Assembly: GCA_035084275.1 (NCBI GenBank)
Contig: CM068748.1
Coordinates: 7,874,001 to 7,938,000, forward strand
From: Hydrolagus colliei
Taxonomy: Eukaryota
DNA: 64,000 nt
Direction of reading: 5' to 3'
Part shown: positions 52,158 to 62,282 of the stretch, piece after piece
Layout of the letters: every line of letters begins with the position of its first letter
How positions within the stretch are numbered: the stretch's first letter is position 1
Translations under genes and position numbers: made by a program
Notes under the pieces: generated by a model
Databases searched by the model: none
What the model saw: only the letters and a program-made list of their open reading frames with translations
What the model was told of the DNA's origin: nothing

Positions 52158-52478
<321 letters not shown>

Positions 52479-52544
52479 TCACACCTCCTTCAGTCAGCTC
52501 CGTCAATAATCTCTGCGGCGGTGGGGGATGCTTTTTGGAGGCCT

Positions 52545-52610
52545 TTATATACGTGTGTGTGTGTGTATGTGTATATATATATGTAAAATATATATAAATA
52601 AAATCACCAT
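52545..52610 (-). promoter_or_regulatory. 21-aa uORF (MVILFIYILHIYIHIHTHTRI*) spanning a TA/CA microsatellite
   Basis: ATG at 52610, TAA at 52545-52547. Confidence 0.55.
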
Positions 52611-53237
52611 GGGAGAACAGTAGGTGAGAATGATCCAAATTGCGTGGTGAGGCCGCCACAATCACAGGCTCCGTCTCCGATTCCTCGTCCTCCGCCACCG
52701 CTGCCGCCGGGTCGGGGGAGGAGGAGGAAGGGGAAGAGAGAGGGTGGTGTTGGGGGTGGGGGGAAGGAAAGGGGAAAAAGGAAAAAAAAGGGGGAAAAAA
52801 ATCTTCGTCCGTGATTCAAACAGGTATAAAACTGAGACTTTTTTTATATTTATCTATAAAAAGTTTATTTTTCGGGGGGGAGGGGATAAAAAAAAACCCG
52901 GCTCCGGGGCTCCCTTTTCTCACCGAGTCAGTGAGTGAGTGAGTCTTCGTTCGTGCAGCAAACACAGAATTAATCCACGCTCCCGAATCCAGGCTCTTCT
53001 TCCTCTTTACAGCCAAATAATAAAAAGGGGGACTAGATGGAGCTCTTTCTGGGGGTTGGAAGAGCAGAAAGGGGGTGTGTGAGGGGGGGGATAGATGATG
53101 CTTGTTCGCTCGCTCCCTCACCCGCCTTCCTGCCTGCCCACCCGCTCCCTCACTCGCTCTGGGTCTGGATCCGGCTCCAGCTCCAGCTGCGGCCCGGGTC
53201 CCGACTCCAGCCCCGGCTCCGGCCGCCGCTCCGATTC

Positions 53238-53252
53238 TCAAACTTCCATCAT
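53238..53252 (-). promoter_or_regulatory. uORF ATG ATG GAA GTT TGA (MMEV*)
   Basis: Read directly; GCC-ATG context; 918 nt upstream of the PTEN ATG. Confidence 0.8.
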
Positions 53253-53459
53253 GGCTTCCCGGGAAAAGACAGCGCAGCGCTGGGGCACCGTAACCTTCCG
53301 CCAGTGCAAGAAAGCGCTCTCCCCCTCTCAACAAACCTCCTTCCCCTCAGATTAAGTCCACACAGCCGCCGCTCTCTTGCTTTTGAAGCAAGTTTTCTGT
53401 CTCGGCGAAGGTGTTTCTTTTAAGTGTGTTGTTAAAAAATGAGATATTACAACACTGGT

Positions 53460-53540
53460 TGCAGTGGTTATCCGGCGGCGGAGTGACGCGCTGCTGACAG
53501 TGCGGCGCTACTTTTGGATCCCGGGCGGGTCACGTGATAT
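53460..53540. promoter_or_regulatory. PTEN promoter candidate: GC box, E-box GTCACGTGA, CRE-like half site
   Basis: GGGCGG 53523-53528, CACGTG 53531-53536, TGACGC near 53484; CpG-rich. Confidence 0.6.
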
Positions 53541-54275
53541 CCAGCTCAGCCCAGACTCAAAATCCTAACCCTAACCTCATCCCAGAGCCCAGCTCACCTC
53601 CATCCCAGAGCCCGGCTCACTGCAGCCCAAAACCAGGCTCACCTCCAGCCCAGGCTCAAACCCAGCTCACCACAACCCGCCTCACCTCATCCCAGAGCCC
53701 GGCTCACCACCATCCCAGAGCCCGGCTCACCACCATCCCAGAGCCCGGTTCAAACTCGAACCTCATCTGGGCTCACCTCATATAAGAGCCTGGCTCAAAC
53801 TCGGCTCACCTCCTCCCAGAGGCTAGCTCATCCTATCTCGGCTCACCTCATCCCAGAGTCCAGCTCACCTCAGCACAGAGTCCGGCTCACCTCAGCTCTG
53901 AGGCAGACTGAAACCCTGTTCATCTCAGCCCTGTGCCCGGCTCAAACCCCATTCATCTCAGCCGAGGCAGGCTCCAACCCTACTAACCTCAGCCCCGAAC
54001 GAGGCTCAAACCTGACTCACTTCAGCCTTTAGCCAAGTTCAGATGCGAGCCCACCTTGCCAGAGCCCAGCTCAGCCCAGACTCACCTCAGCCTAGAACCC
54101 AGCTCCGTCCAGAGGCAGGCTCAAACGCTTCCCACCTTAGCAAATGAGCCAGGCTCAAACCAGATTCGTCTCAGGCCAGAGTCCAGCTCAGACCCGGCTA
54201 ACCTCAGCCCATACTCATCTCAACTCAGGCTCACCTCAGACCTCAGCTCAATCCCCAGCTCATCCCAACCCAAAC
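53540..54275. repeat. Degenerate minisatellite, about 22-23 bp unit CCCAGAGCCCGGCTCACC(T/AC)CAT
   Basis: Exact 23-mer repeated at 53691-53713 and 53714-53736; degenerate copies across about 730 bp. Confidence 0.85.
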
Positions 54276-57726: not shown

Positions 57727-58199
57727 GTTAAACACACGTTTATAGAGAGGAAAATTAAATCAAAAATAATCTGGAGGATTGGAAAACATTGGTGAGACAA
57801 AAAACCTATTTCTAGAACGGATCACAGAACATCAAGAACTCGCATTTACATAGCGCCTCTCACCCAGGGCTAGTGCCAGTGGCTCAAGCTCCTATTGAAG
57901 CAGGAGTAAGCACTTCACAGTATTCTGTGAAGCGCTTTGAGGCGCCTCGAAGACGTGATAAGGCGCTTTATCCAATAAAATGATTAATACAATTATTAGT
58001 ATAATTTCCCCCTCCCCCAACTCCCACTTGCGCAACTGAACAAGACACTAACGCTGTACTACGAACGGGTTTTTATTTATTATTTCTCTAGATTTACCTT
58101 TGAAAGACAGCTCCAGTGCGTTTCTATAATACACATATAATATAACAATGATTATTTTTTAAAAATCAAGAAAGAATTTGCTGGTTCAGGGTAAACTCC

Positions 58200-58345
58200 A
58201 ACGGAATGAAGGAGGAGCGCGCAACACCGCCGCTGGTAGGACGGGCCGGGCCTGTCAGCGCGGCATCCTGCGCACGCGCGCCGGTGTCACGTGTGCTGAA
58301 CGGGGTCAGAGGTCGAAGCGCCGCCTTTCGGTTTCCTTTTTGGCG
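58200..58345 (+). promoter_or_regulatory. ATAD1 CpG-island promoter: NRF1-like site, E-box, DR1
   Basis: TGCGCACGCGC 58269-58279; CACGTG 58288-58293; GGGTCA-G-AGGTCG 58303-58315. Confidence 0.65.
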
Positions 58346-58363
58346 CTCGCTGGCTGACGGCAG
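58325..58363 (+). other. ATAD1: Probable non-coding exon 1 of ATAD1 (start approximate)
   Basis: Consensus donor CAG|GTGAGT at 58363/58364 inside the CpG island; the next exon has an acceptor 14 nt before its ATG. Confidence 0.6.
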
Positions 58364-59138
58364 GTGAGTTTCTCTGCGGCTTCGGTTGGTCGACTCCCCC
58401 CCTCCGCGGGGAGACAGGAGGTGAAATAAAATGTTACTGATATTAATCTAATTGCCATGAGGGTGAAGCGTTAGACGTTCGAGAAGAAGAAAACGGCGGC
58501 GGTTGGGAGAGTCGCCGGGGGAAGGTCAGGGCCGGTATCAAGGAGGAAAGGTGGTGATGGGGGGGTTGTGTCATCGTTATATTGCGACACATTGTCGCTG
58601 TCGCGTAATAACGGGGGCGGTGGTTGAGGGGGGTTAAACAGTTTTCCCGTACTGCTGAATTCAGATGCCATCCCCGAGCAGAGCAAGGTTTCCGGGGTAA
58701 TTTGACACAATACAATACTCGTTTAACCTTGAGTTTAAATCCTGGTTGGGAAGTTTGAAATTGTGATTAATTTGAAATAAATTAAATATGTATATATATA
58801 TTAGGATTTTTAGTTAATCGTTCCAGTGAACGGGAAACGAAGTCGATTCAAAGAGGTGAAAATTAAGAGGTTTCAAGTGCAGTGAAGCAGCAGCTTCACT
58901 GTGAAGGTGCCCCCTGAAGAGTCCATTACAAACATTGGGTTCTAGATGTGTCCCACTCCTGTACCGAAAAAAAACATCCTATGAATCCTACAAACTAAAA
59001 TACAGGCACAATAAGATGGAGGCAAACAAATTGATCAACATATCCTTCTCCCCCCCCTTCCCTTGGGCTTCCATTCAGTCTTTCTAAAGTGCTTTGAGGT
59101 GTTCTGAAGTTCCCTCAATAAGTGCAGTAAAAATCAGA

Positions 59139-61830: not shown

Positions 61831-61981
61831 CTCTGACTTGGTGTCTGACCAGTCACTGATATGCTTTAAGTTGTTCTGCAAGTGCATTACATAAATACTG
61901 AATTGTTAGTGAAGTTGCTGATACCACACCTCACGTTCCAAATGTTTAACATTTGTTTTGCTTTTAGATCTGGAAATAAAG

Positions 61982-62155
61982 ATGGTGCTAAAAGAGATCC
62001 CAACAGAATCCTTGTCTCGACCTCTCTCACGCAATGAAATAGTTGGTTTGATATTTCGTTTGACAATATTTGGGGCAGTAACATACTATACCATCAAATG
62101 GATGGTGGATGCCATTGATCCAACAAGAAAGCAAAAGATGGAAGCACAAAAGCAG
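61982..62155 (+). CDS. ATAD1: ATAD1 (Msp1/Thorase AAA+ dislocase), first coding exon with N-terminal membrane anchor
   Basis: MVLKEIPTESLSRPLSRNEIVGLIFRLTIFGAVTYYTIKWMVDAIDPTRKQKMEAQKQ; exon starts at 61968 after TTTTAG; donor CAG|GTTAG. Confidence 0.96.
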
Positions 62156-62282
62156 GTTAGATTTTGATACATTTTCTACTTTAAACTTTACACCATTGCT
62201 AATAGAGCAACCTGGAAAAAGATTTTAGCACCTTATAGTTACACGTTGCATACATGCCCAGATTCACACATTTATTTTGGTT

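Follow-up and report, generated by a model that had tools for sequence, protein, structure and literature searches.

PTEN is a dose-sensitive tumour suppressor, and the split between chimaeras and mammals is about 450 million years old. What keeps an upstream open reading frame (uORF) of only four codons in the PTEN leader on both sides of that split, and is it selected as a translated frame, as a peptide or as DNA? We addressed this in a 64,000-nt stretch of the chimaera Hydrolagus colliei genome (GCA_035084275.1, contig CM068748.1, positions 7,874,001 to 7,938,000, forward strand; hereafter the window), in which a sequence-only reading had pointed out the frame.

The chimaera PTEN gene and its leader

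Nine exons with AG/GT ends encode a stop-free PTEN of 404 aa, the only PTEN match in the genome. The protein is identical to Callorhinchus milii PTEN at 393 of 404 residues (97%), pairs with it in a 39-row tree (support 100/99) and shares 81-88% identity with the bony-vertebrate rows. The nine exons, the single match and the Callorhinchus pairing place the uORF upstream of the orthologous PTEN; no second PTEN paralogue for leader comparison was found in the genome. A plus-strand exon at 61922-62167, which we take to be the N-terminus of ATAD1, points away from PTEN, the arrangement found in other vertebrates; the neighbour exon 61991-62158 was not identified in a PDB search. A GC-rich stretch lies near 58150-58450. 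The leader is described by the following features.

52256..52334, minus strand: coding part of PTEN exon 1 (79 nt, GT donor; exon model)
52479..52481, minus strand: first in-frame stop above the main ATG (frame scan)
52545..52610, minus strand: the one further AUG uORF in the leader, with 21 codons and C at -3, lying in TA/CA repeats and not seen in the mammal-type leader L002 described below
53238..53252, minus strand: PTEN uORF1 with tandem AUGs, MMEV*, very likely the counterpart of the human four-codon uORF1 (PMC4892431)

Read directly, positions 53252-53238 of the minus strand are ATG ATG GAA GTT TGA, a four-codon frame (MMEV*) with GTT as its last sense codon. The first AUG has G at -3 and A at +4, the second A at -3 and G at +4. 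With the first uORF ATG at 53252, the end of the stop at 53238 and the main PTEN ATG at 52334, the spacing is 918 nt, and the letters confirm the tandem AUGs in good contexts that the sequence-only reading had described at this distance. The longer string GAAGCC ATG ATG GAA GTT TGA GA, which that reading had placed at 53235..53256, is present but spans 53258-53236, slightly wider than given.

From 53560 down to the main start the minus strand has just three ATGs, namely the tandem pair and one at 52610. In the 956 nt above the main start these three compare with 12.2 expected (P = 0.002), while the controls gave 24 vs 21.5 expected in intron 1 and 18 vs 16.5 expected in upstream DNA. As far as the letters go, this depletion has the appearance of a scanned leader. 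Past the uORF1 stop, 640 nt are free of AUGs, and the only other AUG stands at -276 in a weak context; no equivalent of the 45-codon human uORF2 lies behind the chimaera uORF1. Because of the stop at 52479..52481 an N-terminal extension can have at most 48 codons, so that no proteoform of PTEN-L/M length is possible. The uORF is in frame with PTEN in the chimaera and out of frame in L002. Thirteen near-cognate codons in strong context occur in the ~900-nt leader.

Contigs from a cartilaginous relative (organism A; four runs from two studies, presumed to be RNA) were compared with the window. In all four runs a contig departs from the genome at 52252 and from there on matches exon 2 (compared by eye), so these runs contain spliced PTEN. 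The uORF is spanned by contigs in two of the four, X1 (53280 down to 52943) and X4 (53344 down to 53211); the X2 contig ends at 53254, X3 stops short of the uORF, and no contig joins the uORF to exon 2. The X1 contig shows 0/20 substitutions within 53180-53280 (scan-corrected P = 0.013 with any position allowed; substitutions only). There is no contig cover upstream or in intron 1. Placing the start site by this lack of cover or by the contig ends at 53254, 53280 and 53344 was considered and rejected, since the ends vary between runs and contigs cannot show ends.

Identity to a mammalian leader and a predicted bird-like variant

The stretch compared with other vertebrates extends slightly beyond the frame.

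53236..53255, minus strand: 20 nt shared without mismatch with a mammal-type PTEN leader (L002 591-610); single-copy in the genome

The window has a single copy of this 20-mer, as does the whole 1.0-Gb genome. Scanning a metagenome collection with it gave two matches, L002 and L003. The first is identical at 20/20 positions and belongs to a mammal-type processed PTEN pseudogene with joined exons and in-frame stops, and the 3' part of its leader tracks the mammalian rows of the Tzani alignment. In L002 the MMEV* frame stands at -818, near the beginning of the PTEN-like sequence, and a 49-codon second uORF is found at -760. Since the retrocopy has MMEV* near its PTEN-like start, the element is part of the mammalian mRNA. 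The pseudogene (L002 560-1933) retains the entire leader from ~30 nt above uORF1, and retrocopies can mark ancestral start sites.

The second match, L003, is unrelated and is not PTEN. A 20-mer alone can thus match by chance in a very large collection, and it is the context that carries the case. That unrelated match is the one point in favour of chance similarity; against it stand the same gene, the same leader position, the evidence from intermediate lineages and the length of the match. When the window leader (1011 nt) was compared with that of L002 (852 nt), no exact match was longer than the 20-mer and the next was 15 nt; only these two exact islands stand out between the chimaera and mammal leaders. 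In 500 simulated leaders the longest match was 15, reached once and never exceeded. On these comparisons we regard chance as effectively refuted already. A human PTEN bisulfite primer (PMC5916733) fits 19/20 positions with C/T ambiguity, and a human pseudogene primer in the same source has GTG in place of the first AUG. This was the sole paper found with the 16-letter core, and the human identity was checked only via the primer. The chimaera-mammal identity of about 20 nt claimed at the outset is borne out in full by L002, and for human itself it stands at the 19 C/T-ambiguous positions of the primer. Start, stop and context account for ~13/20 identical bases. The other seven match with P ~0.024 at the four-fold-site identity of window PTEN and L002 (20/34, L002 being a pseudogene), and additional constraint on these seven bases is possible. 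Taken as sequence, the chimaera frame very likely corresponds to human PTEN uORF1.

Other vertebrates were assessed through gene models that wrongly run through the PTEN leader in shifted frames. Among 282 stored proteins, 42 have more than 150 residues ahead of the PTEN start motif; eight of these were informative and 34 were not. HDG, which is how the uORF reads in the -1 frame (HDGSLR in the window), is present in five informative models, and the other three begin with WES. Five of the eight group with pigeon and tinamou PTEN, one of them being identical to pigeon over the trimmed sequence. When two frames were intersected, four of six pairs permitted one DNA reading only after the second AUG, GGA GTC TAG. 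In the register check the best pair had 17 compatible residues, where the 269 control offsets reached at most 7; the remaining pairs had 12, 8 and 8, and those with P0166 (8) are barely above the controls (7). The two pairs with P0047 were compatible over at most 3 residues, and P0047 alone allows TAA at the same codon in one third of its back-translations. For P0004, the clade of which we take to be marsupial, a stop at codon 5 is impossible and a stop at codon 6 is allowed in 1 of 6 back-translations. The first bird AUG follows if an in-frame stop lies immediately before the start of the partial models, which is the case in five mammalian models.

Back-translation, in which no DNA letters are read, suggests that birds likely have MMGV* encoded by ATG ATG GGA GTC TAG, with the starts, the +4 G, the Val codon and the stop position kept and four letters changed. 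Such a pattern, in which starts and stop position are kept and letters and peptide change, points to selection on translation more than to an invariant DNA motif or a peptide. It also speaks against the invariance of synonymous sites across vertebrates that had been supposed, since the bird-like models imply GGA GTC TAG vs GAA GTT TGA and P0004 has no stop at codon 5. No new read-through model from a fish or amphibian emerged from the 26 matches of a search for PTEN models longer than 711 aa, and a region search with P0053 returned only itself. P0022, P0248 and related mammalian models show an apparent splice from within uORF1 to a site ~110 nt downstream, which is probably an annotation device to avoid stops.

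The same models bear on whether the MMEV tetrapeptide, or a stalling effect of it, is the selected function. The peptide is the same in chimaera and mammal, and Val is the last sense codon in the predicted bird frame too. However, the bird peptide obtained by back-translation is MMGV, with Gly for Glu, and a conserved peptide would show the opposite pattern, residues kept with synonymous sites varying. Four residues also remain within the ribosome exit tunnel, which counts against a function of the peptide. In human reporters, loss of the AUGs had an effect of less than 10% (PMC4892431). We consider a selected MMEV peptide very improbable.

Published work on uORF1 and a proposed re-initiation mechanism

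Tzani et al. (2016; PMC4892431) described two conserved AUG uORFs near the PTEN cap in a 52-mammal alignment. Their human uORF1 is a four-codon frame that opens with tandem AUGs in good context and is covered by many ribosome footprints. Mutation of its AUGs lowered reporter output by less than 10%, and conversion of its stop to a sense codon severely reduced it. Where uORF2 was already absent, removal of uORF1 as well raised the L proteoform from ~2.5- to 5.3-fold and the main ORF from 1.5- to 1.6-fold. Arsenite treatment hardly changed the human PTEN reporters, and the major human start site lies 187 nt below the RefSeq end. The uORF1 element was thus already published and most of the tests proposed in the sequence-only reading had been done in human cells, including mutation of AUGs and stop, inspection of Ribo-seq and arsenite treatment; its remark that the element had received far less attention than PTEN-L or MP31 is not supported. 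The main text of Tzani et al. makes no statement on conservation in fish or other non-mammals, and its supplementary alignment begins downstream of uORF1, without the uORF1 letters. Pten is named among hyperconserved vertebrate 5' UTRs (Byeon et al., 10.1101/2020.06.29.165878), and a mouse CRISPR screen was aimed at the longer Pten uORFs, not the four-codon one. A chimaera counterpart, a bird variant or a uORF1 without uORF2 and long extensions was not found in print, although genome-wide supplementary tables may list them; the main text of PMC7889888 mentions PTEN 0 times. The new part is that uORF1 extends to a chimaera whose leader is without uORF2 and any long in-frame extension; its likely age is that of jawed vertebrates.

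Our preferred reading, to which we give a probability of roughly two in three, is that the chimaera uORF is the counterpart of human uORF1, likely lies near the cap and catches most scanning ribosomes, leading to far-downstream re-initiation in which near-cognate codons are skipped and the main AUG is favoured. The uORF would lie a few tens of bases from the cap, where two successive AUGs would capture most scanning subunits. After four codons the small subunit would scan on without initiator tRNA and bypass nearby starts, and within the 900-nt leader it would regain competence and initiate at the main PTEN AUG. What was established here is the sequence, its uniqueness, its identity to the mammalian leader, the AUG depletion and the lack of both uORF2 and a long extension. 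Translation of uORF1, the stop requirement and the damping of non-AUG proteoforms are taken from the human work (PMC4892431). Cap proximity and translation in the chimaera, like the bird codons, are predicted, as is the transfer of the human mechanism.

Several known systems can be set beside this one. Human PTEN uORF1 (PMC4892431) resembles the chimaera frame in its four codons, tandem AUGs, good context and location in the 5' part of a long leader; the chimaera differs in having neither the 45-codon uORF2 nor an open frame for PTEN-L/M/N/O, and the alignment of Tzani et al. covers mammals only. The short re-initiation uORFs compiled in PMC10742948 (ATF4 uORF1, C/EBP-alpha/beta, SCL and POLG), where start redistribution is listed for these genes and for PTEN, are likewise very short and precede several starts, of which the downstream one is expected to be favoured. 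MP31 (PMC11106035) is also a uORF of the PTEN locus, but it is the peptide of a specific isoform with its own function and not the four-codon frame. For DENR-MCTS1-dependent uORFs the last sense codons named in PMC7494916 are GCG, CTG and ATG, and GTT of the chimaera falls outside that named class. Studies of hyperconserved 5' UTRs that include Pten (10.1101/2020.06.29.165878) deal with structure and with IRES-like or promoter activity rather than uORF1.

An ATF4-like stress switch, in which uORF1 would delay re-initiation past an inhibitory uORF under eIF2-alpha phosphorylation, would agree with mammals having uORF1 plus an inhibitory uORF2 (PMC4892431) and with the second uORF of L002. In contrast to ATF4-type uORFs, no eIF2-alpha response was found for human PTEN, where arsenite had little effect (PMC4892431), and in the chimaera no overlapping inhibitory uORF lies in range: the leader is AUG-free between the uORF and -276, where the next uORF has a weak context. 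We therefore find such a switch improbable, and the stress-responsive role suggested in the sequence-only reading is likewise not supported. The selected translational control element with re-initiation that was proposed alongside fares better, being supported by the starts and stop position kept in the bird-like models and by the human reporters.

Under the re-initiation reading the selected benefit is putative, since loss of human uORF1 hardly alters main-ORF output (PMC4892431). Retention of uORF1 in a chimaera without uORF2 or long proteoforms suggests that the human assay probably missed the condition under which selection acts. In the history of the leader, uORF1 likely came first, and uORF2 and the extensions later. 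A bolder and tentative version holds that no other part of the PTEN leader is as old as uORF1 and the start-site block next to it, and that jawed vertebrates have retained the two as a gate close to the cap, by which almost all PTEN synthesis has to pass through re-initiation. If this were true, PTEN dose would hinge on some re-initiation pathway that does not act by eIF2-alpha phosphorylation, and variants that abolish the stop of the 15-nt frame would form an overlooked class of PTEN loss-of-function alleles. The surprise is modest, since earlier work had already described both the element and its basic mechanism; the chimaera leader offers a simpler natural test system, and 15 nt is a compact target for variant interpretation.

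The promoter-like flank and smaller elements

Conservation does not end at the first AUG, and the following features lie outside the frame.

53255..53279, minus strand: conserved block with a GC/pyrimidine stretch and a GGAAG core (53259); alignment with L002, RCAVF match at 53279
53530..53537, no strand assigned: E-box TCACGTGA, ~285 nt upstream of the uORF and 1.2 kb above the main ATG; a GC box adjoins (53528)
52385..52399, minus strand: second conserved island CCAGAGCCATTTCCA with ATT in the PTEN frame; 45 occurrences in the 52-mammal alignment (PMC4892431 supplement)

The alternative that concerns us most is that the block has been conserved chiefly as DNA, namely as a core-promoter and ETS-like (GGAAG) cassette around the start site in which the uORF is tolerated as a passenger; the block presumably resembles ETS/YY1 sites. 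Consistent with this alternative, conservation continues upstream of the AUGs: the block at 53279 reads RCAVF in one frame, as in the bird-like model P0166, and GGAAGC, coding GSC, is present in L002 and 5/5 read-through models. The clinical definition of the human PTEN promoter, -1344 to -745, covers the uORF/GGAAG region, and many hyperconserved leaders, Pten being among such leaders, are explained by promoter overlap (PMC9456764). By analogy with the human data (PMC4892431), 53255..53279 is likely a transcription-start region. Against a pure DNA cassette, the predicted bird letters alter the inner GGAAG core and two letters of the stop while the stop codon position is retained, and the human stop mutation acts strongly in plasmid-driven reporters (PMC4892431). 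We judge this alternative unlikely, yet more deserving of attention than the stress switch. Conservation of the GGAAG block upstream of the AUGs is unexplained by translation, and probably both layers act, with the flank serving the promoter and the core serving translation. The overlapping DNA motif raised in the sequence-only reading is accordingly weakened for the uORF core, where the bird letters differ, and may still apply to the flanking block.

The CCAGAGCCATTTCCA island could possibly mark a short AUU-started PTEN extension. Its ATT is in the PTEN frame, at -57 in the window and -84 in mammals, and with +30 or +36 nt in organism A. The position is Val in three turtle-like models vs Ile in 25 mammal-type models, so that the AUU-start reading is weak although the frame is kept in the window, mammals and organism A. 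Alternatively, we take the island to be a possible YY1-like GCCAT site. A further island shared with mammals (52413-52422, minus strand) has 52 occurrences in the 52-mammal alignment (PMC4892431 supplement). An Rfam scan gave 10 matches, all far below gathering scores.

Immediately before the uORF lies the palindromic TTCCCGGGAA (53256-53265, minus strand), which is absent from L002 and the spacing of which we assume to be STAT-like. The E-box TCACGTGA may be compared with human PTEN, where a USF-bound E-box is reported upstream at about -2180 (10.1101/2021.04.23.441162). Directly upstream of the chimaera E-box, at 53574-54262, there is a degenerate tandem array with periods of 22-37 nt, GC-rich and CpG-poor.
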